NCBI GenBank assembly: GCA_030698625.1
Contig: JAUYMS010000003.1
Location: 83,471 to 147,470 of the forward strand
DNA: 64,000 nt
Reading direction: 5' to 3'
From: Candidatus Omnitrophota bacterium
GTDB taxonomy: Bacteria > Omnitrophota > Omnitrophia > Omnitrophales > Aquincolibacteriaceae
The position numbers were made by a program, and so were the translations under genes. Below the pieces are notes generated by a model. That model saw only the letters and a list, made by a program, of their open reading frames with translations. It was not told where the DNA came from and did not search any database. Below, piece by piece: positions 903 to 43,468 of the stretch (the stretch's first letter is position 1; the number at the start of each line of letters is the position of its first letter).

Positions 903-1022
903 TTGATGCGGAAAAAGAATTTCAAAAGGGGATTTTGCATCTGGCAAAAACTAACGGCCGCCTTTGTATCGGTCTGCATGATCCTCTTGAGTGTTGTCGA
1001 ATACGTGCCGGCCGCTTATGCC
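903..1022 (+). other. N-terminal Sec-type signal peptide or signal anchor of the giant protein
   Basis: MMRKKNFKRGFCIWQK (basic n-region), LTAAFVSVCMILLSVV (h-region), then PAAYA/ST (AxA-like site), covering aa 1-40. Confidence 0.6.
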
Positions 1023-13000: not shown

Positions 13001-16000
13001 CGATATTATCCCGCCCGCACAAAAACGACGGCATCGGTCTGAGCTCAGAAAGGGGAAGCCGATTGAGGATTATCTGAAGGAGCTCGAAAACGAGAAGGCC
13101 GTATTCGGACCGGACAACGCAGGGGAATTTTCAGAGAGCCACCGTTATGTGGACGGTATTCTTAAAAAACTGATCCTTACAGCGGGTTTTGATCCCGCAG
13201 AGTACTCTCTATACCTGGTCGATGACCCGGAACCCAAAGCCTGGATTCAGGGGCGCTATCCCGCCGTATTTATCTCGCTCGGCCTGCTGCGCTTTTTCGG
13301 GCGCCATCGGCTTTCACAAGACGCCCTGGCCCACCTCCTGGCGCATGAAGTGCTGCATCTCCGCCAGCATAAAGAGGACGAGCACTATAGCGGGCCGTCA
13401 AGCTGGTCTGAATACTACGCGGAGTACTATGCGAATGAGTACGACGCCGATGTCCGGGCACTCAGGCTTATGGCTGAGGCAGGATTTTCCATTCAGGACG
13501 CCGAATCGACTTTCGAAAAATTACGCGAGGGAATGGGCAAGAATGATTACTCGCCTCTCGGCTCCTACCCGCAGATGCGCACGCGCAGCGACCGCATCAA
13601 ACAGATCCGTGATTACGGGCGCTGGCCCGACAGCGCGCGCGCCGCGCCGCAGGCCATGCCTCAGGAGGTTCTTCGCGAGGCCATGCGTTTCTCGCTCAGG
13701 CGGCAGAAATGGCATCGCGCCAACCGCATTAATCAGGTGAAGGAGCTTTCCGAATTGATCGAGACGGCTGATGCGCTCAATGACCTTACGTTTATCCTAT
13801 GGTCGGGTCTCGGACGGCTCAAGAAGCGCCGGGTCCTGAAGTCGGCAAAGGTGCCGCATGCCGTCGAGTCCGCGCTCGTGACCCGGCTTGCTGCATTACC
13901 GATCTGGCCCGAATATCTCTCGGCCGACACGCGTGACCTCGCCGCGAAACTACTCGGTAAATTCCTGGCGGCGACTGTCTACGGAAAGTTTATGGAAAGA
14001 ACGGTGCTGATCGACCATGAATTGTTGAATGAAAAGGCATTGCTTGACGAGCTTTCGGAGATTTTTCACTCGGCAAAGAACGCGAAAGATGTGCTCGACC
14101 TGATCTCGGCGGCGATCTTTGTGACGATGCCGCAGCGCATCGCGCTCGGGCGTGAGACGGCCGGCGACGCTCAAAAATCCTATGCCGCATACCAAAACCG
14201 GTGGCATGCCGAACCGCGGCGGGGCGGTGACACGGTGGGATGGGTCTATACGTGGGAGCAGTTTCTGGGACGGGCGCTGCTCGAAGAAGTACCGTACGTG
14301 CCGATAGCCGGCCGGCAGGTCCGGTGGGGCCCTTTTATCCGCGTCGTCGGCTGGATTCAAGGGGCCGTCCGGTTCGTTCTCGGCCGGTTCGTAAGTATCG
14401 ATTGGATTCAGGTGCGTGACCCGCTTGCCGGGTGGACGGCGGCAGACCTCGGGCGCGTGTACGAAGCGGGCGCGGGGCGTACCTGGGGCGGGTATCATAT
14501 CGGTCCGATGCGTCATTCCAATGTGGTCGGCATCGACCACTGGTTGTTTCAGGCGGCGATCAATCATCCCGAACTCGTAAAGGCCATGGACACCGATACC
14601 TTCCGCCGTTTTGTCAAAGACGCCACGAAAATCGCGGTGGCCAAGGGGCCCGGCCACAGTGATGATCCCGAGACACAGGAAGCCAAGATGCGCAACATGA
14701 TTTATGAAGCGGCGTCTTTGGATGCCGCCAAGCGTGAGGTGATCCAAAATCTTCTGGGTAATGATTATGATGTCTTCGGCTTCTTCAGAACGGGGATCGA
14801 ATCGTTTCCCGATACCTGGATCTTCGGTGAAAACGCACCGGGTACCGGATATGCATACGCAGAAAAGAGAATGGATGATCTCATCCGGCAGCTGCACGCG
14901 CGGCGCGGGTCGATCAGCGGTATGGTGCTCCACCACTCGGAAGTGCTTCATGCAAGCGATCGTCTTGCGGAGAGCGCGAAACTGACGCAGACCGAACACC
15001 TGCGCCTCATGGCCCACCTTGCGAAGACCGAATGGTATTCGGCTGACATGATGTGGCACAGCCTGCTCGGCTGGGAATCGGGTCGCGTTCAGTGGATACC
15101 CTCTTTTCTCGGACAGGCCGACGACGAGCTGAACGCCTTCATCGACCTCGATTTGAGGGCGCGGCTCGGTGACGGCGTCTGGGAAAGCCTGCCGGTGACG
15201 GGACGGTTCATTTTTTATGCTTACCTGAACGATATCTACCAGTTGCCCGCCGACTGGGAAGCTTGGGACCGGGAAGTACAGTCGTGGAGCACGGAACAGA
15301 TCCGGTTGCTGCACAGGGTGGTTGCACAGAGTACGAACCGGCCCGTCTTCGACACGGATGCGAGGCTTGACCGCGAGGCGATCGACCGCCGGCCGCCGCT
15401 TCCTTACCGCCGTTCGCGCGAAGAGCTCTTGTTGCGCTTGAGTGTGCTGGGCCTTTTGAAGGAACAGGGCGTTTCTCTAAAGAAGTATTTGCCGCCGGTG
15501 GAACTCGGAAGGTCGGCGCCGAGCGGGGCCTTTGGTTTTGCGGATCAGCTGGCTGATTTGCCGCGCGGAAGGAAGGAGGACAATCCGCGCGTCAGGCGGG
15601 CGATGGATCACCTCTTTCACATGTTCCGGCTTGAAAAGGGCCGCTCGCCGTGGATTAACCGAACCGATATCGAAAAGAACGGTGAGCAGGGGATGACCGC
15701 CATCCTGGGTTATGTGTTCGCGGAAACCGGCGAGACTCCCGCAGACATGGCCGATCGTATCGCCCACTGGCTGCCGGCCACGGCTTATCGTAACTGGGTG
15801 CTCTATCTGATTTTCATGCACCACTACCTTGGCCGAACACTCGGCGTTAAGATAGACCGGAAACGGCTGGGGGATACGAGCTATATGGCGGAGGTGTGGG
15901 CAAGCGTGAGTGATAACCAGCGTGAATCCGCACGTCATTTTATTCGGGAAAAGATCGCACCACTCATGGTGCAGGATGCGCGATTGGAAGGCTTGAATCT

Positions 16001-19000
16001 CGCCAGGGTTTTTGACCATTTTATTCATGAGAAACTCCATGAGGTTGACGAAGCCGCTTACGAAAAGGCATTGCCGGGTTTTCAGGATGTAAGGTATTTC
16101 GTTCCGGGCACCGTGTTGACTCAGCTCGACCTCATGATGGGGGGCGTATTCTCCCCGGGAATTTCAGAGCAAATCGCCGATGCGGCAAGCGATCCTCAAG
16201 ATATTCTCGAACAGATCAGTACGGCCTATCCGCGTGCCTCGGCTGAGCGCGACCGTTTGTTGGTCGAACTTGCCGACCACGCGCGTGCCGATAGCGGCGT
16301 CCTCAAAGACATCATGCCGCTGCTTGACGGCCCGTGGTATAAGCAGGAAATCGGAGTGCGGGCACTTAGAAGCATTCGTGCTTCGCAATCCACAACGTCT
16401 GTTGACGATTCCCTGAAGCTCATCGAAAACTGGCTGCCGAGCGCGACGCCGATACGTGACGGGCTCCTTCACGAGGTCATTCAGGAAGAGGTCGGCACGC
16501 TTCCGGAACTGAATGCGGTGGAAGAAAAGCTCTTCGCACTGCAGCCGAACGAACAGAGGCGCCTGCGCGGAAACCAGGCCGTGGCGCTTATGGGCCTCGA
16601 GTTTTTTCAGGCCATATTCGGGTACGGCACTCCGATGGCCTCCAAGCTGGACCTCTTGGATTGGTTTTTCTTTGAGGGCGGCAAGCCGGACATCCTGCGG
16701 CGCTATGAATTTCATTTCCGTATTTCCTTTGAGGGTTTTATCGAGGAATCCGGCGATCTCGCCAAAAACGAACCTGAGGTTGCGCGCGAGGTCAGAAAAC
16801 GGCTTCTCGCGTTTGTGTTGGACGGCGACCAGGGTATTCTTTCAGACGACGATGCGACTGACGAACTTTTTAATCGGCTGCTGGCCCGCTGGCTTCCGGA
16901 AAACACCGAATTCGACATCGTCATCCGCACGGTTCTCGAGAGTTTGATCGGGCTCTCCGACCGTTTGCGAAAACGTGAAATCCTCATGCACCTGTTGGCA
17001 GGCCCCGACGATCTCAGTGCACTCGGAAACGACCCGGAACTCCGGCAAGCCAAAGTGGCGAAGCTCATTCTCGAAGCCAACGGCTTAGTCGGTATCAAAG
17101 TCGGACAGGTGCTCGCGAACTCGGCACTTGTGACCGATATGCCGGTGCCGATGAGGACGGAATTGGCGAACCTGCAGGACCGCGCCGACCCGATGGACCG
17201 CGCCGTGAGCTTGCGGATTCTCGACCAGATCCACAACGGCAAACTGCACGACCATTATCCGCGAATCGGCCGCGTGCTCGGGAGTGCATCCACCAGCGTC
17301 GTTTATGACGCATGGCACCGCAGCGGGCGGCACGTGGCGCTTAAGCTGCTGCGGCCGACCGCGCGAAATCGTACTGTCGGTGATCTCGCGATGCTGAAAC
17401 TCATACCGGCCGATGTCATCGAGCGGCTGAATGCGAAGAATATCGCAATTCCGGAGTGGCTTGAAAACTACCTCGGTCTGCTTGTCGGGCGCGTCGAACG
17501 TCTCGTGATGCCCGAACTCTTTTATACGGTGGAGGCACAAAGCATGGACCGGTTCAGGGTGCGTCAGCTGGCGCGGGGTTCGGCGCTCCGTATTCCCGAA
17601 GTCGTGGAAAATCCGGGTGACGATCTGATTGCGATGGAACTCATCGAAGATGCCGTGCCGGTTTCAGATGAAGCGGGCATCAATACCCGAGGGCGGCAGA
17701 TGGGTGATGTGCGGCGCGACATTGCGCAGGAGATGATCGTCGAAGTTCACGAAGGGGAATATCACGGTGATCCGCATCCCCGAAATTTCCTGGTCGACAA
17801 GGACGGCCGACTCTGGATGATTGATCTCGGTGCTGTCTACGAGGTGAGTCCGAAGAGTGCCGCATTTCTCATCAGCCTCGTCGCCGCCTTGCACATGGGC
17901 GCAGATATACGGCCCATTCTCGCGGACCTGCTTACGGCGAATGCGGATCCGGCCGCTCTTGAGTCGGCGATTTCAGAAGCGGCGCGAGTCGAAACAATTC
18001 CGGAAAAGATTGCCCAGATTTTCCTCACGCTTGACCAGCAGGCGCTATTGCCCGAAGACCTGGCGCTGACACAGCGGCTTTTCCTGCAGGGCGGTCACAT
18101 CTTCGAAGGCCTGAGTCTCTGGGACCTCATGCAGATCGGCGAACAGCTCAAAGACGGGCCTCAACGCTCCGAGCTCGGATCCGAAACCCCCGTCGTGCGG
18201 GAAGGTCTGCGGCCGGATTTGACACCGTTCATCGGTATCGGCGTACACCGTAAGGACCATCTGTCTTATGGGAACTCGGCCGCAATTGAAGGCGCGGAAA
18301 AGTTGACGGACTTTCTTCGGGACCGCGATTTGCTGCATGAGATACAGCTGACCGTCGAGACTGAGGCCCAGTCTCAGATCGGCCGCGAGATTGCGTCCAA
18401 ACTAGACCGGGTTCCCGACGCAACAATGCGTTTGATTGTGGACGGAGCGTTCATGCAAAAGTGCTGCTCCGAGGCCGTGCTGGGTATCTTTGACCACTTG
18501 GAGGCTAAACCCGGGCGTTTCGCGGAGCTCCATCTGCCCCTGGATCTTATCCTTTACTGGGACGACCGCCAGATGCGGGACTCTCCGCCCGAAGAAAAGG
18601 AGGAATATATTGCGATGCAGGTTCTCCCGAACCTTGAGCGCCGTGGTTTTGGATATAAGGCTTACGGTGTCAATCACCAGATCCTGGCCGAGCGCGACCC
18701 GCCCAAGGGAGGCGAAACCCGGCTGGTCGTCAAACTCTGGCATTCCGCCAAGGAAATGGAGAACTGGGCCGACAGCCTCGCGGCAAAACCCCTGAGGTCG
18801 GAGCTGAGGGCGCTCGAGCCGGTGATGCCGGTGAAGAAGGTGCTTGTCATGACGGGCGAATATTCTTATATGCCGTTTGACAAAGAGCGTGAATGGGAAC
18901 GGTACGTGGTCGATTACCTGCGCAAGGCCGGTGTCGAAGCAGAGTTTGTGTACGCCAACGGGGCGGGTGGAACCTTGCGGCGATTCGAAGAGGAGTTCGA

Positions 19001-22000
19001 TGAAATCGGTCTCGTGATCGCAACCGATGACGTCCTGCGCGGCGTCCGCGAACGGGAACGTCTGATCGGGCGGAATCCGGTGCCTTATATCTTAATGAAG
19101 ACGACCTATCTGCGAATGGACGAACCGGAGCTCGAAGAGCTCGGCAATGCGGTTTATGTGCATAGTGGGCTTGGGACATTGGACGAACTCAAGGAAATCA
19201 TTCCCGAGATTGTCGGCAACGCCGAAGGGGCGGTCTATGAGCCGTTTTGGACAGGAGAAGGCATTGAGGCGAAACCGGCGCGGGAAGGGGTCGAACATCC
19301 GGCCGTCGAGTTGCTTGAGGAATTACGGCAAGACCTCACAAATCCCACATTCCTGAAAAAGATTTACCGCGACACGACCGACTACGATGCCGAACCCCTG
19401 ACAGCGCGCTTCACGTTGATTCCCGGATACAGTCTACCGGCTTTTCCGATGACGCCCGCGAGTTTTCGTGACGACGTCCACCGCCGCATTATCAAGGAGG
19501 TTTATTCCATCCTGCCGCATGTCATCGAATTTCCCGTGGAGGCTACGGGCCGCGCGCCCGTGGTCATCGGAGCGGACTCCGATGAAGGCATCGCCCGGTG
19601 GGCGAAGACAATGAGGGTCGGCAGCCGTTTCGATCAGTGGATCAGCGATAAAATGCCTCTGGTCCATATCGAGCAAAGCCTCAACCGGATCATGACCGAA
19701 ATCGACGGAAAAGAACGTGCGAACAAGGCATTGAGGCGTAGTGTTTACAGGAAACTCGGATGGCGTGTCCACGATCTTGAAATCAAGAGCGAAGCGGCAG
19801 GCGATGAGGCGGGGCAGACGATATTTAATGTTATGGGAACGTGGCTCCTTGCGAACCCGGAGGCCGTCACTCGCGCCTGGGTGGCCGAAGACGAAGACGG
19901 CGCAGCGGCCGGTATGCTGGTACTCAAAAGAACGATTGCGAACGAAACCTTCGGTGAGCACCGGGAGATGGTGAATTCAGCGATCGCAATCGCATCGGAT
20001 GCGGCAACTCGCGGCAAGGGAATTGCGCCGCGTATGATTCGCGAGAGTTTCGAAGCCATGCGACAGAGGGGCATACGCTATTACTTCGCGGATATTGATT
20101 ACCGCAATAAACCGTCTTTCCGCACTTTTATAAAAACAGCGGCCGCGGCCGGGGCTACGGTGACTCACTTCCCCGAAATGACGACTAGCCGGGAAGAGGA
20201 ACGGCCGTTTCTGATCGACCTTTTTTCCGACCAACCCGCGCCGCGCGATCTTCCGGAAGCGCTGCCCTCCGATCCCGATGAGGCCTGGGCTTATGTTCTG
20301 GCGCAGGGATTGATGCAGGAGCCGAGCGATGAGTACTCGTGGACGCCACCGGCCGCTGACGGGGACCGGGCGGTCCGCGAGTATCGAGTCAAAGATGTGA
20401 CCGAAGAGATTGAGGCTGACGAAGATGCGGGGACCTGGATTGATTTTCAGGAACTTTATGACGACAAAGTGCATGCAAAACTTAGGGATATCACGGAATA
20501 CCCGGACCCGGCCGGCCATGAAGCAATGATGAGAGGATTTGAAGTCCAACCCGACGGCAGTTTTGATACCGTCAAACTTGAGGATGGGGCCTACTCTGCG
20601 ATTGTCCGCATTGCGGACCGCGCCGCCGTTCAGGATACCCAACAAGCCTTCCGCAAGTTTGTTGATGCGATTGCTAAGGTGTTTCCGGCGGATGTGCGTG
20701 ATCAAGTGCGCGTGTGGGAAACCGGCGAGGACAACCCCCATATCGGAACGGCGGTCTTTCAGGTGCCCGAAGTACTCTTGGGCGGAAAACAGCCCCGCTT
20801 GCAACCGCGGCATATCGAACCTCTGCAGGAACTTGTCCGTGAAATGACTCAGGACGAAGAAACAATTCCGCTCACTTTCTTGGGCTACGGCATCGGAGCC
20901 GACGGCGGCTTTGTGCGGCTCTACAGCGACCCGGCCGGCCGGTTCATGAAACTGCGCAACGCCCTTCTCCTCAAAGGCCACAAGGTGAGCCAGATGTACG
21001 CTTCGGGGCGGGGAACGAACATTATTGCTATGACCGGAGGCCGCATTTTGCATCTGCCCTATTCCGCCGATGCCGCGATTGCGGCCCGGCAGAAGGACCG
21101 CGTTCTGGAAATTGTGCGCGACAGGGCGCAGGCCTTTCAATCGCAGTGGGAACAGAACCTCGCAGAGCCTCAAATTCTTGATGTCGACGGCCTTACCTGG
21201 GTCTTGGAAGACAAGTGGCTGACCGAACGCAACGAACAAGGCGTCGAAGACGTCTTCTTTCCTTTTGGCGGCCGTTCGGAGCTGCGGAGTTTGAGCGAGG
21301 ATCTGTTAGCTGAGTTGGCTGCGGAGTACGCGGTATCACGGTTGACGAGCGGCAGGAATTCGGCCGAAGAGCAGGAGCTGATGCTGAAAACCATGCGGTC
21401 CGATGTCCACAAGGCAATCCTCTGGCGGTACAAGGGCCTTGAGTTTGAACTTCGCGAGCGTATCGAAGAGGTTGTCTTCGAAGCCGTTCAGGCTGCGGTG
21501 AGAACCTATGACGGAGTACGGCTGAGCTATCTCGATTATTTTTACGCGACGGCACAGGAAGCTATTTTGCATTTTTTCGCAAAATCCGTGCCGGCGGCAA
21601 AGCGGCCCTATCTGCTTTCGGAGCCGCTTGAGGCATATCTGAGGTTTCTGAGTCTCGAGAACCGCCGGCCGGAGCTCGACGAGTTTCTCGGTCTGACCGT
21701 AAATGATATGAAGAACGAAGATTACCTCGTCCTGCAGAGAGAAACGGATGCCGCTAACTACGAAGATTCGATTTCGGTGCCGGTTCGTGCGGCGGCGCCG
21801 GAGAATCAACTGCCGAAGCCCGTTCAGATCGCGAACGCGGGAATGGTGCGGCTTGCGAAAGCATTCGGAATTCAGGCGGCCGACATCACGGCAGCCATGA
21901 TCCACAGCGTGCCTAACACCGAATGGGCCGTGCTCTCCTTATTTTTCGGCATCGATGGCGAACTCATACAGGATCCCGAACAGATCGCCCGAAGGCTCAC

Positions 22001-25000
22001 CGAACTGGGTTACCGCGATGCGAATAATGAAGCGTTACGGGGCGAGAAAGTTTCCGACTACGTTGTCCGGGGTTTGAACCGCTTGCAAAATCGCGAAACC
22101 GGGCGCACGCGCCTTGCCGATGCGTTGGGCAAAAAGCCGACCGAAATTACGCCCGATCTCCTGCAGGCCTTGACCTCGCGTGAAGAGGCGCTCATCCGGT
22201 ATAAGTTTGGTATCGGTAAATCGCGTCTCATGACTCATCTTGAGATCGCCGAGAAGTTGACGAAGGAGGGCTTCAGCTTCAACGACGGTGTTCACGTGAC
22301 AAAAACACTCTACCGCATTTTACAAAAGCTGAAGACAGCTCAGACAGGGTGGCAACTGCTCGCCGCCGATCTCGGGAAGCCGGAAGAAGAAGCGAGACGT
22401 GATTTCGAGAAAAATGCGGCAAAAATGACCCAATTGGAAACATTGGCCGTCACCCATTATTACGGTCTCGGGGTCAACCGGATCAAAGACAAAACACGCC
22501 TGGCCAAGCATCTGAGTGATCTGACTCATGAGACCATCCGAAGGAATCGCCTTTACCGTCTGCTTGCGCGAGGCCTTGCCGTGCTGCGCGGCGAAAAGAA
22601 ACGCGTCCGCGTCAAATCCGCCTACCAACCGCCGATCATTTCGGAGATCCCGGAAGAAGTGGGCGTGACTGGCGACGAACTCCTTCAAGTCATGCGCGCC
22701 GCCGCAGGCGATCAATCTCTGGCGGAGGCATTGGTGCCCGTCCGGGATGCATGGTATGCGTTGCATCCGCTCGGGCGGGAAATCCTGATCATCAACTTCG
22801 GCCTCGGAGTTACGGCCGCAAAATCGCTTCCTGAGATCTCCAAACGCCTGAAAGAAAGTCCTTACTGGGTTGAGAAAAGTGATCCGGCAAAGACAACACT
22901 CACACGCCATCGCCGGTTAGCGCTTGCAGATCTAAAACAACGCGTGAGCGGCCTTAACCGCCTTGCCGAAGACACGGGTGTTTCCGAAGAGTATCTTCCG
23001 GGAATCATTTCGCAGGGACTCGCGCTTGAGCAGAAACGTGTTCTCAAGATGACTTTCGGACTCGATACCGAACGAATCGTGCCGGATAAATTAATCGTTG
23101 ATATCTTTCGTGATGCATGGAGCGAGGAAATCAATGCCATGCGGGTGCGGACAGTGCGCAGGGACGCACTGCAGAGGATCCGCGAATTTGCCGTCAACGC
23201 GGGTTATGCCGACGAGTCGGTTCTGACGAAACGGAAAAAAGACATGTCGAAACGGACGCCGCGGCCGCCCAAATGGACGCGCGAACGAGTCGACCAACTC
23301 ATCGCCGAGTCTGCGGACGAAAAGTTGCGCGCTACGATCCTGCATCGCCAAGGCCTGGGCGGGCTTGTCAATGCGGCGTCGGGTTTCTACGGGTCGTGGC
23401 AAAAGGCTCTGGAGGCGCATCACCGCGATATTACGAAAATCAACATACGAAAAACACCGCAGCGTTCGGAACTGCGGGCAGACAGTCCGGAGTTATCGGA
23501 TTCCCGAGATGCGGAATACAAAAAGAGACTGACGGACATTCTCGAACAGCGCGCTTTGATCATGGAGTTAAGAGAGCTTGAGCCCGCGAGCGATGAAATG
23601 GTAGCGGTCATCCTGGAGCGGTTGGGAGAATACGCGGCTTCCGCGAAAGCGAGCCTGGTTGATGTCGAGGATTTTAAGTTCGTCCTGCGCCTTGTGACGA
23701 ATCCCGCTTGGAGGACGGGTAAATTTAGTGAAAAGATGAAGGCGCTTACTCACCTTTGGGGATATGTGGTGTTCACAGCTGTACGGGAACATCGCATGAA
23801 TCCGCAACTCCGAAGCTCGGTAGACCACCTGATCACAGACATGCTTGGTGCGGAGTTTGAGAATAGGGCCCCTCTCCGCAGGATTCTAATTAACACCGAG
23901 GTTGGAAGCCCGTATCACGAAAAACCCCTGCACGGTGAGGAGCAAATGCTGGGCTCCGACTTTGTGTATTTGATCAAGAGTTTGGCTAAGAATCTGAATT
24001 TATCCGGCCGTCTGGCTGAGAGGAACGACCGCCTTGTCGGGCCCATCCTGCGGGCTTTCGAGGGCCGGTATGATTTTACGCTGACCGAGGCGGAGCGGGG
24101 CAAAATTCTGCAGTTGATGGAAGGCAATGACCTCCTGGCCATTTTTGTCTCGGCGATGGACAACGGGCTCACCCGGCCGCCTTCCAGAGAAATGACGCTT
24201 GAAGACATCCGCAAGATCCGCGGGAAATTCCGCGAGGTTGTGGCGGATTCGATAGGGTCGTATCCGGTCTCCGCGAGGGACCGGATCCTCGTTCGCATCC
24301 TGCAGAAGCAGCCCGAGCTTGGCCGTGAGTTGATGGCTGAGGCTCAGGCGGCTGTGAGTTACAGCCGTAAGCCCATCGACTTTGAGGCAGCCGGGGCAAG
24401 TACTGTGAAGAGGCGAAAAGGTGTGAATGTTGCCGATACCGAAGGTTTTGGTGACTTTGCAGTAAAGCACCCCGACCTTCATGCGGTTTTGACGTCCCGT
24501 GAGAGTCTGCTCACGCTCATGCAGACGGCTGCGCTTGTCCGCGACTTCTTTCCGTATACACTCACGGCCCCCGACAAACTGCAGACCCCGGTTCAGTTTG
24601 CCATTGAATACGGAATGTATCTGCCGTTGGGGCATGGCTATTATCTGACACCGATTTCCGGCTCGTTCAAACGTCACCTGCTCTTTACGATGGATGACAA
24701 GAACCGGCCGGTCATGACGGTGCCGATCAAGATTCCCGGAAAGATCCCGGGCCGCCGGCCCGCTCTAAACGGTGATCTCGACCGCTACCGCGATGCCCGT
24801 GAAGTCTTTGGCGACGATATGGAGATTGCCGGAGCGATGGGAACCGTGGAGCCGGCGGGACTCGAGTCCGTTATGCTCTATGGCGAAGAGCGCGAAGTCA
24901 CAGAGAAGGATCATCTGCGTGTTCTGGTCTTGGAAGGGCCCGAAGCCGGGTGGCGCGTCGAATATCTGCGCCATAAAGACCTGCAGCGGATCTCAGACCA

Positions 25001-28000
25001 TTATCCCAAATACCATGGTGATGCCAGCCTCGTTGCCGACGATATTGCCAGAAGTATTCTTCGCGGCGTGGCCCAGTGGCATGCTCTGAACTATTTAGGA
25101 AAAGGCCCGGGAGAGGGATCCGGCACGGACCTTCACACCGGCAATTGGGAACTCCTCACGCCGCCGTTAAACGGAGACCCCGAGCAGGGTATCTCAGTCC
25201 GCAATATCATCGATCTTGCTTCCCTGCATCAATATGTAGAGGACCGGGCGGCGTTTGATGGGCAGCGCATGTGGGATCTCAAAACGGTCATTGATGCCAG
25301 AGATGTCCTGACGGGCCCCGGAGTCACCTTCAGTCTTTTGGCGCTGCACCTCAAGGAGAACGAACACGATTTTCTCGAAGACCCTCACGACCTCTTCGAA
25401 AAGTACACCGCGATCTATTCGGAGGAGTATGAAGCGGTCAAGCAGATAGCCAAGCGGCCGCCGCCGATGAGTTACAGGGAAATCTATACGACAATCCTCG
25501 GAGAGACGCATGAAGCACCCCTGATCATTACGGGGCTTACGGGCGCGGGAAAAACGATCTTGGCAGAAAACTATGAGAAGTATCTGCGGGAAGGGGAGGT
25601 GGAGGTGCCGGCCCACCTCGTGCATAGTGATGGTTTCTTACGGTACTCGGTAATGGCCCTGCTCATTCGCTTGCTGATCACGCTCGGCTGGATCAAAGTT
25701 GATGCGCTTACGAAGGAAGGCTTCATTCAGCGGCATTACTTCGATTTGGAGAAACGCGACCGATTCGTCGATGAAGTCAAAGCCGGAAAGTACGAAGGCA
25801 AGCAGCTCGTAATCGAAGGCATCTTCTCAGACATCCTTTTTGCGCAGGCCTTAAATGCAAAGACGCTTCTTATAGAAGCGAACAGCGCATCGGTCTATGA
25901 GGAGCGGTACGTCGACCGGTCCATGAAAGACAAAAAACGCCTCAAGCTGCCGGCCCAATTCCTGGCGCGTACGCTGATTTCAAATCGCTTAAATCAACAG
26001 CTCCTTGATTCAAGGGAGAATCATGACCTTGTCTTGAACCTTGATGACATCTTTAAGCCGAAGCTGACCGTCAACCGGCCTCCTAAAAAAGCAGAATTAC
26101 GCCGCTCGGGACTTCTTAAAGTCATAGTCGACGCTCTGACTGCCCCGGCGGGAATTCGCGAGCGTCTTACCGCCGACGGGGTGAAGTTCGGCAGCGTGCC
26201 GGAACCCTACGTATCGACATTCGACCTTGAAGGCCTGCCCTGGGTTTTTACGCAATACCGGAATGAGGACAAGGATTCTCCGTTGCTATCGCTTGATGAA
26301 CTCAAGGAACAGGCTTTGACATTGACCGGCACGCTGGAGGTGAAGTTCGACGGCGGTGCGAGAAACGCCGGGGTCTTTCTCGGCTATGTCCAAGAAGTCC
26401 CGCATCCAGTTGTTATCAAATACTTCCAGGCAGGCGTCAGCGATATGGATGCTTATGATCGGGCACTTGAACTTTATATGGCGCAAATAGTCGCGTTCAG
26501 CGGGGTCGGGCCTGAATTTTACGGGGTGCTCGTCGAGGACGGGGAGATTGTCGGGTACGCCATGCAGGCGGCCCCGGGTGCGTTCGCGACCCAGACAAGC
26601 GACCTGCTTTACCTCATGCGCTATCTGTATCAATCGGGTGACGCCGACAACAAGGCCGTGCAGCAGAACGTGATGCGAATCGAAGAGACGATGGCCCGCT
26701 ACGCCATGGTTCCCGTAGACGGGCATTTGAATGTTCTCCTTTCCCGGACCGGGCACATATCTTTGATTGATGCGGGCAATGTCCGGCCGGCTTCCGAACT
26801 TGCGGAATTTCGCATGCCCTCGTGGATGAGTTCCGAAGAAAAAGTCAAGCAGCTGTTCCAACTTATGCAGGCCTACCTGCAAAAACGACGGCCGCTAATA
26901 ACCCGTCGCGGCGCTATTCATACGTTGCTTGATCATACCCAAGCGGAGCACGCAGCACCTCTTGTATCGGTAACAACACGGGAGATGATGAAAGATGGTT
27001 TGCACGAAAGCCTGGTTAAGTACGTAAGGCAGGGAGGGCATCTGGTATTGACGACTCCAGCCTTCAAAGAAGAGGCCTTCCTGAGCGCGATCGACGGCAT
27101 CCACCGAAATTTTGCGGAGACCGGCGAAATCGAATTGCTGGGCCGCATCCACTTCATCGCAAGCGACAATAATCTTAAAGACATTTTTGTCTACGAATCC
27201 GATGCGGGCGGGTACCGGTTGTTGCCGGACGATCCGATGGAACCGGATCCCCTGCTCAAACTCGTTCGCTATCTGAACACGGCAGGCCGCAAGGTGCTGC
27301 CCTTGATGTCCTATGACTATGAGTCTGCCAGCGTACCCCGTCGTGCCTATTTCGATACTGCCCATCGCGTGTTTTCGCAAACCCCACATGCCGGCAAATA
27401 CGTTGCGATATGGGATATCGAAGAAATCACCGAGCGGCTTGCCGAACGCGCCCCCGAAGAACTCGAAAAGGGCAGGAAGGAACTACCGGCTCAGCAGGAC
27501 TTTATGGAATGGACATTCGAAAGCACCCCGTTCGAGGTGCCTGCCGGAAATCAGGTGAAGGTGATCGTCGGGGAAAAAGGACGGGGCGCACCGGGTTTCG
27601 TTTGGGCCGGTGTCAACGATTGGGAAAAGACCTATCTGATTCCGTTGGTTCAAAACCCGGCGACCGGCAGACACGAAGCCGTGCTCCCGGCCGGCACGAC
27701 CGCATTCACGTTCTATTGGCGCGATTCCCCGAAGGCCGCCGGCGAGCGATGGGAAGGCCGCGATTTTCATGTGCGCTCTGCTGAGCGCTCGGAACTACGG
27801 GCAGCCGCGGTCAATATCACGGAAACCGTATTGCCGAATGCGGGGCTCAAAGGAATGGCGTCACAGGATGCAAAGGTGCTGATCGCCGAACTGGACGGCG
27901 ATTTCCTACTGGAAAGTAAGACCTGGCCCGAAAGGAATGCGCGCACGTTTACCGCCGCCGAACGGAAGATCTTCGAAACGGGTGAGGGGCTGACGCCGTT

Positions 28001-31000
28001 TTCGGAATTCGACCTCACGCACGACGACGTTGCTTCGGTTACGCACAGCATCTATGACCGCACGAGCGGTATTATCGGCATACGGGCGGCCGTCGAGGAC
28101 AAAGCGGGAACGGTCCGCTATATCCGGTTTTCGGGCGCAGGCACGAACGAAATGGAGAAATTGAAAACTCTCATGCCACCCATTTCTGAGATGACCGCAG
28201 AGGGGACGGTCCTGCGCGTTTCGGCCGGTAATCAGGGTGACCTGGCCGGGAATTTTACCGTGCACTCACGCAAAGAACGGGGCTGGGAGTTTTTCGGGGC
28301 CAATGACGAGCCTTGGCGGGGAGCGAGATATAAGGCTTTTGTCCAATTGGAAAATGGGAAAAGGATGTTGGGCGAGGTCGAGCTTGTCGGCGAAGCTAAG
28401 GACAACCGCATTAAACAGGTCTTTATCACGCCTGTCGGCGGACGTGAACGAGTCGAGCTCGATGCGATGCAAACGCGGTCGGTCATTGTTGCCTATACGC
28501 TGGGTTGGGGCGAAACGCCGGCGGACGAGTTACTGAGGAAAAATTACGCCATGAGTTCCGATATCCGGCACCTGCTGGCCTTTCCCTTCTTCCGAGGCGG
28601 TCCGCAATTTTACAATCAGACGGTTTTGACCCGCGAGCGCTATAAAGCCGCGATGAACTTCCGGCCGTTGGATTTTGATATTGTCGACATGACCGGTAAC
28701 GCCATTCCCGTCGCAGAGCTTCTCGGCCAACTTGATAAATACGGTTATGTTGCTAAGGATACCGCTGACGAAGTCGTGAAACCGGGCGATTATTTTATTG
28801 CGGACGAAAACAACATTCGTCTTATTTTTCATCCTGCGGTTTATCCCGTCAACATTCTTGTGACGAGTCAGGACGGCGAAAAGGCGGCTTTCGTCAGCAT
28901 CCAGGGTGTTTCCGGAAATCTTGGCGCGAACTATTGGAATGTCTTTGAGTGGATTCAGGAACAGCTGCCCTGGGCCTTTGCCGCCTTTGCCCTCGACAAC
29001 GGCAAGGACCCGTCATGGCAAAGCTACAATGAGGACGGAACCGAAGCGGAGCTGCTTGTTACAGGCCGCGACCTCGTCAATGCGACCGTGCTTGTCACAA
29101 AACGTGACGGTTTTCAACGGTCAGAGTTAAGGCTCCCGGCACGGACCGCTGAGGAAATGATGACGCGCCGGGAATTTATCCCGCGGGCGGCGTTGGCGGT
29201 TGCTGCCGGTCTCGTTGTTCTTTATGAATCGCCCAATATTGTTCTTGCCGCCGACGAAGAGAAGGGAGAAGTGACACTCTTTCTCCTGAGTCACGGCACG
29301 GTTGAGGACTTCGAGACAGTAAAACCGCATGTGGAAGCGGTCATCAAGCGGCTGCTCGATGCGGGTAAGACCGTGCATTATTTTGTTGAAGCCGCCGATC
29401 TCGAAGCGGAATTATCACTGACATCCCTCATTTACGCGGCGCTTGCGCCCGATCAGTCCGCCGACTTGCGCGAGGTCTTTGGCAACCTCTATACGGAGCC
29501 GCTCCCCGAGGCCTTTCTCGAAACCTCTTTTGAGCAAGATCAGCTATTTGTGCCGCTCCTTCAGGGGGTCGAGCGAGGACTTCAATATATGAAGGATCAC
29601 AACGAGATTCCTGCCGACCGTATTGCCGATTACGAGCTGGTCCTCAAGCTTCTGCCTGTCTTGCGGAAGATCAAGGAGAAGTTCCGGGGAATCGTGCGCG
29701 GCACGGCATCGCCGGACTCCGACGACGTCACTCGCGAAGTCGCGATCGAGAGGCTTACGAAACTGTTTGATGAATTTTATGATGCGACCGACCATTCTTA
29801 TGAGCCGGATGGGTTAGCGAAGGCTCCGTTCGCGCATCGATTGCACTATGCCCTTAACCGGGATAAAGACGGAAAGCCCTGGGGATTCTGGGGCGCGCAG
29901 GAGATGTACCTTAGAGAAGGCACGTTTGCCCCGGAACTGGGAACACGACTGCTTGTTCACAGGGAACGCCTGCTTACGCCCGGCCAGCTTGATGCGTATA
30001 CGACAGCGTCGGTGCAATACTCGAAACTATTTGAAGCGCTCGGATTTCCGGGAAATCCCAAATCAGTTATCGAGATCGAAGGAAAATTTCCGGAAGCGGT
30101 TTTCTATGCGACGCAGGGTACCGCGGAGGAGAGATTGGCCCTCGTGCGCAAAGCCTACTACGAGGCCGGCGCCCGATTTGAGAGTGCCGTCATGGGTGGC
30201 CGCGACAGAGCGCTATCGCAAGAGGCGGTCCGTTTAACACCGGAGGACAAAGACGCATCGGTGATTACCCGCGGTTTGGCTCACGTGGCGGCGGGAAGGC
30301 TTCTGGCGGATAATGCCGCGACGGATGTCAGGGACATGAAGCAGATTCAGGGAAGGGCGCAGCCGGCAGTTGACGCGCCCAATACCGAAGCGGAGCTCAG
30401 AGAAATGCGCGGCGGCAATCCGGGCGACGCCATAAAATTAAAGGTTGGGCAGCATATGGTGGTCGGTTTGATCTCCGATCTCGTTCGCGAAGTCCACAAG
30501 GATCATTTGAAGGCGTATCGAGAGCGCTACGAGAACCTCGCGGCCGGAATCCCCGATACCCTTCAAGGTGAGGACCGGGAAAAGGAAATTGAAAAACAGA
30601 TGAATCAGGCCCCTTACTTCCGCGCCATGGATCCTGCACCGCTTCCGAAACGGCTTGAGAGGTTTTTTGTCGAAGACAGACGCAGTATCTGGAACGCAAT
30701 GGCGGACCACCCGGAACAAGTTGAGGAATTCCTGCTTCAGGCCTTTAGGATTCATGCGGCATACCAGCGGGTCGTTGCTGCAACGCTCCGGAAGAAAAAA
30801 GAGACGGAGCCGGAGGAGGATCCTGTGGAAATGGCGGGGAGAATCTATGCGACTTATCTGGCGATGCTGAAGCTGCGGTCTGCCTCGATCCCCACGCCGC
30901 TTGAAGCCGAAGAGCTGCCGTTCAAGTTGATCACAAAGGCCGTTGCCGACGGAGTGTATGAAGGGGATGTGAAGACTTTCCTCGATACCTTCGAAGCAGA

Positions 31001-34000
31001 AGCCGAAAAAGTCATGGATTTCAAACCTTCGCTCCTGCGCCGCGAACGCTATCGCTCCGAGCTGCGGGATGATGAGCCTGTAAAGGAGATTCCTCTTTAT
31101 ATGGCTTATGCGCGGCATTTAAACGCGGCGGACACCTTTGATTTCGCAAAGCCGTTTTTTGATGAGGCAATTCAGAAAACATCTCGCAAAGACGGCCGCC
31201 CGAACGGCATTATGATTATCGAGCATGTGGATTCCAATCTTGCTGCTATGTTCATGAACGCGATGCACCGAGTCGTTGATCCGGTGCAGTTTCCGGACTC
31301 GGTCGTGGGCGCTTGGTTCAGACAACAACTTACTATTCCCAAACAATGGACACCTTATGAAAAGATGGAATCGTTTCTCGTGCAGTACCGGCAAGATCAG
31401 CCGTTCAGGACTGAAGTGGACAACCAGTATCAGGCCTTTCTCAAACATATTGGCGTCGAGAGAATCTATGGCATCTATGACCTAAAGCAAAGGATCGGGC
31501 CGGCCTCTGTTTTACAGCATGCGGAGCTCGACTATTTTATCGAAAAGGGGATAGGTCAGGCCGCGTTGGAGCCCGCCCGCTTTGAAACGGCCGCGACGGC
31601 GTATCTTTTCGGGGAATTGGATAAGGAGATAAGGCAAGCGCTTACGCAAAGGAGATATGACGATGCGGCCAACTTGCATTTAAAGTCGATTGATTTGCTT
31701 GAGGACTCGGGCAAAGTCCGCGACAGGATAATGAATCAATTCGTAGGTGAGCTCATCCGGGAAGATCCTGAGCGTGCCATCTATCACTTTCGCGGTTTTA
31801 ATCATGAGAGAAATCACGATCTCCTTACGGGTGACGGGCAAAAGGCCGCAGGTGTCTTGGTCGGCAGCAGGCTGGGCCAGAGGCCTGTCTTTTCGACAAC
31901 CACCTTTCAAGCCATGGACGGCGCAGAAAAAAACCTTCTCCTCATACATTTTATGAATGAGGTCCTGGATCATTTACTTCATGAAGAGAAACTCAGCTCG
32001 CATCGCAGCATCCAGGAATTCCTGGCTTTTCACCTGAGTCTGACACAGGGGCTTGAGCGGGAATTTAAAAGCCTGGAACAACCTGAAGACTACGATGCTT
32101 GGTTTAGGGAAATCTTTGATGCCGCAAACGAAACAGTACAAAGGAAGAGCCTGTCCCTGGGTCTCGCGCTGCTTGAAGTTTTGGAAGAAAGAAATATCCT
32201 GTCTCGTTCCGAGCTCAGGACCGAAGGCGGCGATAAAGAAAAGCCTCGCGGGCAAATTACGCGAAGGACGTTTTTGGATTGGATGGTGAAAGCCGCCAAT
32301 GCGGCCGCGGCGGCATCGGGGGTTTCGCCCGGGGCATTGCTCGAGGCCGCCGTCTCCATCCCCGCCGAGAAACCAGACTTGTCGCTGGCGGCGTTGGCCC
32401 GGCGATTTGCCCATAATCCCGATTCCCTGAAGGAACTCGAACAGGGTGTTGCTTGGCTTCAGGCATTCACTATCCTATACGGAACTGACAAGAAAGAGGA
32501 AGACTATGAGCTGGGCTTGATAAACCTGAAGCTCGCCGTACTGGACGGCGTGCGCACACGCAAAGAAAGTGAAGGCGTGACCGCGCTTTCCGAAGAGGAA
32601 GCCGCTTCACGGCTTGAGACGGCCCTGAATTCGCTGGAATCCATTGCCCAGTCCGAGGGCCTGAAAAAGGCCCCGCATCTCTTGGAGCGTCTGCGGAGCC
32701 TGATGGCCGAACCGTTCAGCTTCAAAGCTGCGCTGTCTGCACGAACGGCTCTGATACGGCACGCCTGGGGCACCGTACTTGGACCCCGCAGCGAGCTGTC
32801 GAGGGTCGCCAAAGACGTTGCCGAATGGTATGGCCGCGATCTCCGGGCCGCGCAAGCCGTAATGGCGGAGATCGCCGAACAGCTCACGCCGGAAGGATTC
32901 CGAAAAATACGGCAGCGGGAATTGATCTTCGAAAGGAATATGGACAACTACTTTGATCGTTCACTCCTCCCTGAGATTGCGCGCGGCGAGGCCGAGATCG
33001 ATTGGAGCAACCTTTTGGAAGACGACTACCGCGCTCGCATGTCGCGGTTTAAGGATCTGGCCGGTCAGTTGCCGGCAGCGGTGCGCAAGCAGGTGTTTGC
33101 CAATCCTAAAGTGCGGGAGGCTGAACGCAGTTACCGGCAATGGCAGCGCGAAAGCTGGAAACGAAAGGAGGAGCGGGAAACCTCCGCCGATCCCGAATCG
33201 CTCAAGATGATCATCGTCGGCGGCAGGTTCGACGACGAAGGCGGCAGGCCGTCATCATTAGTCAATCAGATTCATGCCGCACTGCCCGCGGGCACGAAGC
33301 GCGTCAACGGCGGCCGCTTTGACGCAATTCCGGGCCTCGCAAAGACCCTCGCCGATTATGACGTGATCATCTGGTTTCCCGATATTCCCAATGACAAGGC
33401 GAAATACCGGAATCTGAAAGCGCGGTATCCCGACAAATTGCTGGTGACCTCGAAGCGCAACCACGAAGGCAGTTATAGCGACCTCGAAGTCGTCGATCAC
33501 GCGCTCAAACTCAAAAGCAATCTCGTCATCGAATTTTCGGATACGATTCCGTTTAATATGAGGCTGCTGGATCCCTTGGGAAATGTCTACGAAGATACTC
33601 AGGACGCGTCATCGCTCGCCAAGTCGATGACAAGGCGCCTCAAGGTGATCGCGAAGGTGCGTCGGCAGGGGACAAAACGCGTCGCGGTCGCCTCACCGGT
33701 CAAGGTACCGGATGAGCCCGAGTTTTTCGATATTATCCGCGATCAAGCCGCGCGATTTCACGAGATCATGAGTGAACGTCGGCCGGAGACGGAAGAAAAC
33801 GAGGAGTTTTGCTTCCGTTGCGAAAGGGGATTCCCGAGTATGCGCGAGGGCGATTTCGCGTTCGTCTCGAAGCGGGGTGCCGCAAACACGGAGCGGCATT
33901 TTACGCGCAAAGATATGGTTCCCGTGGATTTGGCGAGTTTCCGCGAGACGGGCGAAATTAATTTCTACGGCCCCAACAAACCGGCGGTGGATACGCCGGT

Positions 34001-37000
34001 CCAGGTAAGACTCTATAATCAATATCCGGAAGTAAAATATATCATGCATTCGCATGAGTACGTGGAAGGCGCGCCGTTTACCGATGAAGTGTATGCCAGT
34101 GAGGCGCTTCAGGAATTTGACGAGATCGTGAAGGTGGTCGGAAAGGAGCCGGGCGTTAAGAATGTTGCCGTCAATCTGAAAGGGCATGGCAGTGTCGTGC
34201 TTGCCGCCGATCCGGAATATTTGCGCAATACCAAATATGTCTCCCGGACTTTTATCAGCGAGAGGACGGAAATGAACGCTATCCTCGTAGGCGGCCGATT
34301 TGACGGCGAGGGCGGGACGCCGTCGGCACTCATCCAAGAACTTCACGGGGCGTTCCCGCCGGGCGTGACGCTGCACAATGGCGGATCTATCGAAGAGTTG
34401 ACTGCGCTATTCAGCGGGTTGAGCGAGTATGAGGTCATTATGTGGTTCCCCGAGATTCCGCGGGGAGAAGATACCCTTACGTCGAAGATTAAGCTGGTCT
34501 ATCCCTTCAAGAAGCTCATCACGGCGGCCCACAACCGAAGCGGCGACCGCCCGTTCCAGGTGATAATGGACAAGGCGCTCGGCGTGCGGAGCAATTTGGT
34601 TGTCGAATTTTACGACGGCGAGAAGCCGGGCATGCGGCTCTTGGACCCATTATCCAACCAATACGGTGATACTACAGACCCGGCGCTATTTGCCGCTGCC
34701 ATCAGGGAGCGGCTTGAGATCATGAGGAAGTTTACGCGCCAAAGAACGGTTTTGGCGGGTGAAGCCAAAGTGCCGCCGAGGAATGCAGAATTTGAAGAAT
34801 ACCTCGGAATCATCCAGGCGTACGGCGAGAAAGTGCATGAGTTGATTCATCCGGCCGAAGGTGTCAAACGGTTCCTCGGCAATACCTCATTCCGCGCTTC
34901 CTATATGTATCCCGACGCTGGCTACGACGACCTGGTCTACATCTCAAGACGGAACGTCGATAAGCGCAATCTCGATGAAACCGGCTTTATCGCAATCGAG
35001 AAAGACTCGTTTAAAAATAGGCAGATCGGCTACTATGCGGACCGGGATCCCATCACGGGCGAAGAGCAGAAACCGAGCGTAGATACCCCGACCCAGGTGC
35101 GGTTCTTTTCGAAACTGCCGAACGTGAATTTTATCCTGCATTCCCATGTGTATATCGACGGCGCACCGTTTACTGAAGCCCTGTGCCCGTGCGGTTCGCT
35201 CGAAGAAGTCGAAGATGTTCTAAAACTCATCGGTCATGACTACAGCAGGACGAATTTCGCGATCAACCTGCGCGGGCACGGCAGCCTTCTCTTCGCACAA
35301 AGTCTTGATTATCTAAAGGAAGATCACCCGTACACGGCCCGCCCGCTTCCCGAGCTTCTCAATACCGACGGATCCAAGGCGAGAGCCGCTGACTACTTGA
35401 AGAGCCCGTATATTCGCGAAGCCCGTATCGTCGGTGACGGAGAAACCGTTACGGCCGAAATCTTGCCGAACTTCGAAACCCTCGAAGCCTTTGCCCGGGA
35501 GGAAGGGCTCTACACACTGCGTGAAGTCGATCTTCGGAACGATCCCGCAGTTTATCAACTCTTTATGGATATCGCCGGCGGTGTCAACCGGCTGCTCGAT
35601 GAGTCCGAGCATATCCGTAACATTGTCCTTTTAAGTTCTCCGCCGGGCGCGGACAGGCAGCAAATGATCGATACCGCGATAGCCGAAACCGCTCTGGAGG
35701 AGACAACGTCGGCGTACTTCGAGAGCGAAGAATTCGCCCGGGAGATTCTCGCCGTGCCGGGCCGCGAATTGCCGGAAGCCTATGTCAACGTACTGCGCCG
35801 CGATTTTCGTGCCGGCCGGTCGGGGCATTATAAGCGGCTTTTAGGTTTTACGGGTTCCGGCGAAGCCATGTTCGAAAGCATGGAAGAGTATTTCAATAGT
35901 GATGCGGCGGTTAAGATCTATAAAGTTCTGTTTAAAGGGCGCGTGGCGGGCAGAATTGTCGTCAACGAGAGGACTAAGACACTCATTGATGCGATCGTTC
36001 TCGAGCCCTACCGCGGAAACTATCTCGGCGATGCCGTGATCGGGCTGCTCGATCAAAAATACGGCGAATACTCGATCGTGATCCCGACCGGTGTTCCTAT
36101 CTATAATTTTCTCATCAAGCGGGGCTTCAAGGTCCTGCACTCGGAGTCGTTCGGCGCCATTGACCTCGATATCATCAGCCGTACTTCGCATAGCGAAGAG
36201 GATTTGGCGCCGGTAAAGGATGTACACCGTACGATATTCGCGCTTTATGCAAATGCCAAGATGGCTGATTTATCGGCTGCGGCGAAAGACCCGAAAGAGA
36301 GCGGCCTTTACAGGAATTTTCCCGAAGTCTACGATCTGCTCTATCAAAGGTTTTCCAGGCGTTTAGGGGATTACCTGGGCCTTGTTAAGGAGAATACTCC
36401 GGATGGCGGTGCCATCATGGACGCCGCTGCGGGAACGGGCGAGGTATCGGTGCCGCTGCTTCAGGCCGGCTACCGGGTCCTTTCAGCAGACCTTAATGCC
36501 GGAATGCTCGAACAGTTGCAGAAAAAGGCAGGCGAGGGCAGCGTTACGGCAAATACGGCCGTCGCAAGCTTCCATGAATTAGGCGATAGGGAGGACCAAT
36601 TTGATACGGTCAGTGTAAGGCAGGCAATCAATTATCTGGTTGGTGAAAAAGAATTGGTCAGCGGCTTAAAGGCGTTACGCAAGCGGATAAGAAACGGCGG
36701 TAAATTCGTGTTCAACGCGCCGAATTACAATCCCGCGACTTTTACGCCGCCCGAGAGAGGGCCGGATCATATCAAACTGGGAACGATGAATGCGATTGTG
36801 TGGGAGAGCAATGCCATCGATGAAAACGGCATACTAACGCACCATCAGCGCGCTCTCGTGTGGGACGACAACGGCCGTGACGATGTCCGTTACTATCATG
36901 ATAAGAATACGTTTCAGATGTATACGAAGGACGAACTCGACTCCGCTTTGAAAGACGCGGGTTTCTCCGAGATCTCGTATTACTCCGAGCACGGCAAGGC

Positions 37001-43465: not shown

Positions 43466-43468
43466 TGC

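Follow-up and report, generated by a model that had tools for sequence, protein, structure and literature searches.

A tandem pair of CoaB-like/class II aldolase-like modules with reciprocal residue losses inside a giant Omnitrophota protein

Giant genes are already known from the Omnitrophota, in which proteins of at least 10 kaa (thousand amino acids) are common, and 'Archaeovorin'-type multi-enzyme giant proteins have been described (West-Roberts et al., 10.1101/2023.11.21.568195; Nielsen and Lui, 10.64898/2026.06.07.730766). Archaeovorin-type genes exceed 90 kb and encode SecA-like helicase domains together with a C39 or S8 peptidase near the N-terminus, and information on the cleavage points of Omnitrophota giant proteins is lacking (10.1101/2023.11.21.568195). 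Here we analysed a 64,000-nucleotide stretch of an Omnitrophota genome (the window; contig JAUYMS010000003.1, assembly GCA_030698625.1). It holds a giant open reading frame (ORF) of 12,250 amino acids at 903..37655 on the + strand (likely start, the ATG at 906), which encodes a tandem pair of two-domain modules at 33207-35360. All features given below lie on the + strand of the window unless stated otherwise.

The initial annotation had recognised two adjacent, collinear, in-frame copies of one module, and these are real paralogues. Copy 1 (33207-34271, giant-ORF residues 10769-11123) and copy 2 (34272-35360, residues 11124-11486), both in frame 0, align collinearly over their full length by BLASTP with E=4e-75, 55% positives and 123/352 identities, or 35% rather than the approximately 40% once estimated by eye. 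The motifs by which the similarity was first described are all present (GGRFD.EGG, WFP.IP, SNLV.EF, MRLLDPL, KP[AS]VDTP, HSH.Y and NL[KR]GHGS), and a chunked self-BLAST of the whole ORF revealed no other large internal duplication. The copies are joined head to tail with neither a linker nor a stop codon between them, and their junction is conserved, reading KYVSRTFISERTEMNAILVGG in the window and KYIPRPFIQNKTAINGILIGG in a related giant ORF, L070. The methionine reported at the start of each copy does exist in the window but is no conserved start, the corresponding residues of L070 being Lys or Ile; since Ile replaces the Met that opens copy 2, no internal start lies there. Each copy comprises an N-terminal domain (N1, 33207..33653; N2, 34272..34724) and a C-terminal domain (C1, 33660..34262; C2, 34731..35360), with N1 and C1 scoring 154 and 179 bits against our hidden Markov model (HMM) profiles of the respective domains.

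As modelled, the module is an N-terminal fold like that of CoaB (phosphopantothenate-cysteine ligase, PPCS) followed by a C-terminal class II aldolase/AraD-like fold. The model was built with AlphaFold2 for copy 2 only, from 54 aligned sequences, and had a mean predicted local distance difference test score (pLDDT) of 92.7. Structure prediction had been suggested as a way to find remote relatives of the domain with the GGRFD motif, and it did yield a CoaB-like fold; the fold of N1 is assigned by homology to this model. The C domain showed the fold characteristic of class II aldolases/adducins (PF00596), and its proposed aldolase-like nature was upheld by profile searches. Both copies exceeded the gathering score of Pfam Aldolase_II (23.3 bits for copy 1 and 24.8 bits for copy 2 against 22.2), barely and in both cases through a partial match to profile positions 16-92 of 183, or about 40% of the profile. 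Most free-standing homologues of the module carry a precomputed match to the same family. When the family profile was compared with the PDB, AraD was matched by sequence with E=5.7e-7, and KPSVDTP...HSH was aligned to KPSSDTP...HTH.

The metal-ligand pattern of class II aldolases, an Asp and three His, is kept in both copies, as the initial annotation had it. These residues, D271, H290, H292 and H336 in copy 2 numbering, are invariant in 54 of 54 aligned sequences, copy 1 included, and are identified as putative metal ligands because of the sequence alignment to AraD and of the structures of AraD and FucA, whose metal site we take to be equivalent. FucA and AraD bind phosphate through a GN.S loop and through Ser residues ahead of the acidic ligand. 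At these positions C2 has RFLGNTS and KPS, with S(R)RN.DK standing in place of the (T/K)PSG motif usual in class II aldolases, whereas C1 has lost GN and DK and, in the window copy, the Ser as well. The module further differs from class II aldolases such as AraD, FucA and MtnB by two family-specific invariant cysteines and by a C domain that always stands behind a CoaB-like domain of about 155 residues. It falls short of the AraD and MtnB equivalog models (NCBIfam TIGR00760, TIGR03328 and NF006672) by more than 100 bits, scoring 24.2 bits against a cut-off of 389.1 for AraD and 24.6 against 226 for MtnB. The C domain is a divergent member of the class II aldolase superfamily but no equivalog of AraD, FucA or MtnB.

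The N domain resembles CoaB both in its predicted fold and by remote profile similarity. A local hhalign comparison with the CoaB proteins encoded beside homologues of the module gave a probability of 82% and E=1.1e-5, pairing FPNVPND and TSKRN with the AAVADY and FK regions of CoaB, respectively. Relative to CoaB/PPCS (PF04127), the N domain is shorter (about 155 against 225 residues), only its second half is aligned by hhalign, and the CoaB signature motifs (GGT.E.ID...SSG and AAVADY) are not conserved as such. The NCBIfam CoaB model matched neither copy. NCBIfam holds no specific family for the module and PADLOC no defence-system family; of the whole giant ORF, only an ABC1-like part has a family in PHROGs. 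Because Pfam returns no DFP domain, NCBIfam, PHROGs and PADLOC provide no family, and the equivalog scores lie far below their cut-offs, the combination of a CoaB-like with a class II aldolase-like domain is a distinct, uncurated architecture. We found no papers linking class II aldolases with phosphopantothenoylcysteine or CoaBC. The predicted biochemical activity of the module is possibly linked to precursors of coenzyme A (CoA).

The two copies are not equivalent. For reference we used a profile of 50 free-standing homologues, in which 48 columns are conserved in at least 49 of the 50 sequences and whose members score 124-204 bits with the N profile and 222-294 bits with the C profile. Across the fused pairs, including those of the related sequences described below, N1 scored 126-158, N2 102-123, C1 160-188 and C2 201-231 bits; in every lineage N1 exceeded N2 and C2 exceeded C1. 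The window N1 deviates at 2 of 27 conserved N-domain columns, and N1 of the lineages that lack C1 shows further changes at L150, L190 and R234. Every N2, that of the window included, has lost N103, K107, S126, K127, Y140 and G191 (alignment columns), all of which are present in every N1 and are the positions that hhalign matches to CoaB motifs. The C domains are altered in a different manner. Every C1 lacks R292, G295 and N296 (RxxGN), D338, K339, P417-C418-G419 and E486, and often N336 and S378 as well, while keeping KP.VD, H.H, the third His, E423, N450, R482 and the RCxxGFP loop; the four lineages with a C1 also keep Y404. Every C2, in seven lineages, lacks C307 and G311 of the RCxxGFP loop, and often F312 and P313, with all else kept; the window C2 thus retains the full pocket (RFLGN, RRNVDK, KPSVD, HSH, PCG, GHG). 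Counting only columns invariant in 50 of 50 free-standing homologues, seven are absent from copy 1 and three from copy 2, and none from both. The sets of losses are disjoint between the copies and identical in all lineages, which argues that they were fixed early and then maintained. None of the 50 aligned free-standing homologues shows a loss pattern of the copy 1 or copy 2 type.

The fused pair was seen solely in long multi-domain or giant ORFs, namely in the window and in six other sequences: L070 (ORF of at least 3,849 amino acids, from nucleotide 5468), L127 (at least 7,372 amino acids), L147 and the identical L128 (at least 6,752 amino acids; the L147 ORF from nucleotide 1313), P0075 (3,012 amino acids), P0079 (3,298 amino acids) and P0076 (990 amino acids). 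Orthologues are 52-58% identical to the window copies, with about 57% for both copies. The order N1-C1-N2-C2 is found in the window, L070 and L127. L147/L128, P0075 and P0079 have N1-N2-C2 and still hold a short peptide ahead of N2; C1 has therefore been deleted in these lineages. P0076 has N1-C1-N2, so that N1 and N2 are present in all seven lineages. P0075 and P0079 additionally carry a complete AMP-binding (ANL) enzyme, fused to the pair immediately ahead of N1.

When orthologues were included in neighbour-joining (NJ) trees, the copy 1 and the copy 2 sequences each formed a group in 200 of 200 bootstraps, and all four copies were monophyletic in 156 of 200 (78%); with the window copies only, sisterhood of copy 1 and copy 2 received 32% bootstrap support. 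As each copy is orthologous across lineages, the duplication is old, having preceded the divergence of seven or more sequenced lineages, and copy 1 and copy 2 have both been maintained. A single duplication event is the most likely origin, with moderate support. An old internal duplication rather than an assembly artefact had been proposed for the window, and the diverged copies and the orthologous pairs of other lineages agree with this. The suggested comparison of nonsynonymous and synonymous rates was only partly informative: the pairwise alignment could be made, and the NG86 method gave dN of 0.65 between copy 1 and copy 2 and of 0.34-0.36 between orthologues, but the proportion of synonymous differences (pS, 0.74-0.87) is saturated, so that the ratio is not interpretable. 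These figures are consistent with purifying selection of a strength that they do not quantify.

Elsewhere, the module is usually a free-standing protein of about 360 amino acids. A word-indexed search found 52 such proteins of 342-393 amino acids with 31-39% identity to the module, and an exhaustive profile search found at least 547 clusters (representatives at 50% identity) at E<=1e-30, nearly all of them 343-430 amino acids long with one matched stretch. Occasionally the module is fused to an inositol-monophosphatase/CysQ-family domain (6.7e-39) or to PTH2. In IMG/VR we located 65 loci, many on contigs of 200-600 kb. Two contexts examined closely resemble huge-phage genomes, with RtcB, HNH, Rnl1 RNA ligase, NADAR, metallophosphatase and Band_7 genes. 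Full-length homologues with 26% identity are encoded by 15 of 15 records of the Lak megaphages of Prevotella (MK250015-MK250029), which carry no annotation; an example lies at 357713-358765 of MK250016.1. In GTDB genomes we located 57 loci, in DPANN archaea, bacteria of the Candidate Phyla Radiation (CPR), metagenome-assembled genomes (MAGs) of Tenericutes/Bacilli, Dependentiae, and the isolates Siminovitchia and Pelotomaculum; the locus of Siminovitchia thermophila DSM 105453 is L072. The tandem module occurs in 0 of 121 free-standing loci. L062 had looked like a two-copy locus and was rejected, being a single module split into separate N and C ORFs.

We clustered the ORFs surrounding these 121 loci. 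The sole strongly recurrent neighbour is CoaB/CoaC, which lies 1-3 genes from the module, on either side, at 21 cellular loci. Pfam DFP (1.6e-31) and the NCBIfam CoaBC equivalog (285 bits, with a cut-off of 219.7) verified this identification. In Tenericutes/Bacilli, a divergent LysR gene is followed by coaC, coaB and the module. In DPANN, a divergent gene for an AbrB/MazE-type (SpoVT-AbrB-like) regulator is followed by an Amidohydro_2 gene, the module and coaBC. The linked loci are L075, L079, L084, L089, L093, L100, L102 and L113 in DPANN and other archaea; L088, L091, L092, L094-L099, L104 and L106-L108 in Tenericutes/Bacilli and a few other bacterial MAGs; and L116 in a Cellvibrionaceae MAG. 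Viral neighbours (NUDIX, CCA-adding enzyme, RNA ligase, thioredoxin and metallophosphatase) recur more weakly, none of them at more than 11 loci.

CoaB enzymes form dimers, and class II aldolases form tetramers in which the active sites lie between subunits. Because of these assemblies and of the reciprocal losses, we lean towards reading the fused pair as a duplicated CoaB-like/aldolase-like module that has been subfunctionalised into an intramolecular pseudo-heterodimer. Two protomers would have been fused head to tail and would then have undergone reciprocal loss. A nucleotide-dependent CoaB-like site would reside in N1, perhaps with a contribution from the RCxxGFP loop of C1, and a metal-dependent aldolase-like site in C2, leaving N2 and the C1 pocket mainly as structural partners. 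More speculatively, the substrate may be a phosphorylated precursor of CoA, for instance 4'-phosphopantothenate or phosphopantoate, an idea suggested by the occurrence of free-standing homologues in coaC-coaB or coaBC operons of two very distant groups. Within the giant protein, the pair might be among numerous enzymes that a polyprotein releases or displays, which is likewise a more speculative step.

Several observations weigh against a subfunctionalised pseudo-heterodimer acting on a CoA precursor. It is only patterns of conservation that distinguish the two proposed sites, and Pfam DFP (PF04127) matches neither copy at E<=1. Neither C domain is strictly required, as shown by the variants lacking C1 or C2, which weakens a strict version of the proposal; in P0076 the eroded pocket of C1 must suffice alone, unless P0076 is defective. 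The 78% support for monophyly comes from a star-like NJ tree with long branches. At phage loci the module adjoins RNA-repair and NUDIX genes and not coaBC, and Pfam detects no CoaB or CoaC domain in the giant ORF. Neither the phage nor the Omnitrophota contexts add anything in favour of a CoA-precursor substrate.

The losses could also mean that the N2 active site and the C1 pocket are simply decaying, and that the pair is a functional single module accompanied by relics, with C1 as dispensable ballast. This would fit the deletion of C1 in three lineages (L147/L128, P0075 and P0079) and the scores of C1 and N2, which lie under the range of free-standing homologues. However, C1 keeps its metal ligands and the other residues listed above in all four lineages that possess it, and it is about 55-57% identical among them while synonymous sites are saturated. 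P0076 has C1 without C2, N2 is retained in 7 of 7 lineages, and the same losses are found everywhere, as expected if they were fixed early and maintained rather than still progressing. We regard simple decay as unlikely.

The two copies might instead have been acquired separately, for example from two phages or other donors, and have become neighbours in one ORF only by a later fusion. Shuffling and accretion of modules are evident in the giant ORFs, the identity between the copies (35%) is like their identity to free-standing homologues (31-39%), and the window copies taken by themselves group weakly as sisters. Yet all four copies are monophyletic in most bootstraps once orthologues are included, and neither copy has a counterpart of its loss pattern among the free-standing homologues, which makes separate acquisition improbable. 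Still less probable is that both copies are fully active and equivalent, the duplication serving only to raise local dosage or to pre-assemble an oligomer: both do show the metal site and the overall fold signals, but the missing invariant columns, seven in one copy and three in the other, form disjoint sets, and this pattern is conserved across lineages. That the copies are separate proteins made from internal starts, or an artefact of assembly, is scarcely credible despite the ATG that opens each copy in the window, given the lack of a stop codon over 36.7 kb, the replacement of both Met residues in L070, a 35% identity that rules out collapsed or duplicated reads, and the presence of the fused pair in four independent assemblies.

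The fused pair is embedded in a larger array. The giant ORF begins with an N-terminal hydrophobic segment, a signal or anchor sequence, and with a TIKI/RRSP-like (TIKI/Ere-like) hydrolase domain, segment 1 (1068-2240); Pfam and PHROGs leave most of the ORF unmatched. In an alignment of 17 sequences of segment 1, D80-x-H82, E109/E110 and E148/H151/R154 are invariant, and GGFH is part of the consensus without being invariant. The distance from H82 to E110, 28 residues, equals the spacing of H3902 and E3930 in RRSP. The domains found elsewhere in the ORF include methyltransferases, GNAT, an M48-like zinc metallopeptidase with the motif HEVLH (13140-13367; Pfam 29.8 bits against a cut-off of 20.3) situated after a delimiter at 13035, and an ABC1/UbiB-type atypical kinase domain (17172-17891; Pfam 3.7e-25), which is the only PHROG match (phrog_9248). 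Two short repeat sets of about 70-85 residues, 41% and 27% identical, lie at 4713-5288 and 21822-22571.

The delimiter is the pentapeptide RSELR, which occurs 16 times in the giant ORF at apparent module boundaries (15 nucleotides each, from 2343, 2505, 3750, 4701, 9417, 10392, 12276, 13035, 18795, 21273, 23463, 27786, 29118, 31053, 32205 and 37050), joined by one RSELG (18165) and one RSELS (32787). The stretches between these sites contain mutually unrelated domains, or no domain. In four related giant ORFs, RSExR occurs at 41 sites against approximately 0.8 expected from shuffles, with 7-10 sites each in L070, L127 and L147, and it has 0 matches in the 7,916 amino acids of other window proteins. 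Position x is L at 22 of the sites, V at 10 and I at 3, and small residues flank the motif. The codons of RSELR vary synonymously at 5 of 5 positions, which rejects a DNA- or RNA-level repeat and points to selection on the peptide. We found no relevant publication on this pentapeptide.

The delimiter-bounded segment that holds the pair (32787..37064, from RSELS at residue 10629 to RSELR at residue 12050) consists of 140 residues, N1-C1-N2-C2, about 320 residues without a family match, and an S-adenosylmethionine-dependent methyltransferase. For residues 11487-11800, a reading as the C-terminal piece of an acyl-CoA synthetase followed by GNAT was dropped, as neither Pfam nor the PDB supported it. 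The set of blocks around the pair recurs in L070, L127, P0076 and P0079; it is reordered in L070 and L127, where the methyltransferase block precedes the pair instead of following it as in the window. P0076 resembles this segment, the seventeenth of the window ORF, as a separate gene for 990 amino acids. Delimiter sites flanking the pair survive intact in some lineages but have decayed in the window: RKEER (33162..33176), just upstream of N1, is a probable decayed delimiter aligned to RSEVR of L147, and RAADY (35382..35396), just downstream of C2, is another, with ARSEVR in L070 and GTRLAG in P0075 at the same position. P0075 lacks RSExR and instead carries six G[ATS]RL[AG] sites (residues 151, 304, 869, 1242, 1489 and 2616), one of them directly after C2, and the replacement of RSEVR of L070 by this motif suggests that delimiters are lineage-specific.

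Two further features relate the delimiters to possible processing. Signals resembling those of twin-arginine translocation (Tat), read from the translation, directly follow two RSELR sites, TRREFIPRAALAVAAG at 29118-29222 (residue 9406) and TRRTFLDWMVKAANAAAAASG at 32205-32321 (residue 10435); such internal signals would function only with a new N-terminus made there. Homologues of segment 1 include proteins of 431-486 amino acids that end at the position of the first RSELR of the window, and longer homologues have RSE[MFVLA]R immediately after the domain. RSExR sites are candidate polyprotein cleavage or recognition sites, and the M48-like zincin is a second candidate protease.

Taken together, the delimiters, the Tat-like signals, the free-standing counterparts and the shuffled order make a self-processing polyprotein a reasonable hypothesis. 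We offer only tentatively the joint proposal that the giant ORF is such a polyprotein of shufflable enzymes and that the module is a new CoA-precursor-related family. Cleavage at RSE[LVI]R, or at G[ATS]RLA[GE] in another lineage, would be the task of either the N-terminal TIKI/RRSP-like hydrolase or the M48-like zincin. Some of the released enzymes would then expose Tat signal peptides, and others, among them the fused pair and its methyltransferase block, would serve as metabolic effectors, cytoplasmic or directed at a host, of a type found also in huge phages and episymbiotic archaea and bacteria. If this holds, the module would represent a new enzyme family, related to CoA precursors and employed by megaphages and host-dependent microbes.

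The giant gene stands among housekeeping genes and is therefore chromosomal. Its flanking proteins NuoN, IF-2, PNPase and ATP synthase alpha subunit exactly match those deposited at NCBI for a 'Candidatus Omnitrophota bacterium' MAG, where they lie on a contig of 151.5 kb. The genes downstream, at 38101-50625 on the - strand and 53949-63373 on the + strand, comprise nuoI, nuoN, the F0F1 ATP synthase alpha subunit, IF-2, PNPase and other unannotated ORFs, possibly more nuo genes. No signs of mobile elements were seen adjoining the giant gene, and no conserved genes were found upstream of the giant ORFs. As for a conserved C-terminal module (segment 18), the only match was a weak one to P0067 (27% identity, E=0.002).

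Giant Omnitrophota genes themselves are no novelty, but the architecture of the module, its distribution in megaphages and symbionts, its linkage to coaBC and the fused, presumably subfunctionalised pair were not found in the libraries or papers searched. The family is widespread, with at least 547 clusters, and has no entry of its own in those libraries, Pfam covering the aldolase-like part only. It is common to megaphages, DPANN, CPR, Tenericutes and Omnitrophota and is genetically tied to coaBC; this shared distribution and genetic link make it a candidate for a missing or alternative CoA-precursor step in host-dependent organisms. The fused pair would exemplify subfunctionalisation after tandem domain duplication, with reciprocal losses fixed in several lineages, and natural variants without one domain, N1-N2-C2 and N1-C1-N2, exist. 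More surprising than the pair is a side observation, the polyprotein delimiter. The surrounding ORF offers a testable answer to whether and where Omnitrophota giant proteins are cut, since motifs and proteases that are candidates for the cleavage can be named for it, as can free-standing counterparts of its pieces.

MARTX toxins and the 'polyvalent proteins' of phages and conjugative elements string together effector enzymes in a single polypeptide, from which processing frees them. The giant ORF resembles MARTX toxins and polyvalent proteins in joining many unrelated enzyme modules with a short recurring motif between them. Its modules have free-standing phage homologues, a further likeness, and its TIKI/RRSP-like domain is a likeness to MARTX, in which RRSP is an effector with a TIKI-like fold (PMC6254334). 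Neither RTX repeats nor a cysteine protease domain were detected in the giant ORF. It also differs from both groups in being encoded on the chromosome, beside nuo and atp genes, and in that its processing is only predicted.

Close in organisation, too, are the giant genes of the same phylum, with which the ORF shares an N-terminal signal or anchor and a long array of methyltransferases, peptidases and other enzymes, mostly without a family match. At 36.7 kb it lies below the Archaeovorin-type class of more than 90 kb, and Pfam at E<=0.01 finds no SecA-like, C39 or S8 domain in it, its N-terminal domain being TIKI/Ere-like instead. Whereas information on cleavage points was lacking for the giant proteins described before, a recurrent delimiter motif is visible here.

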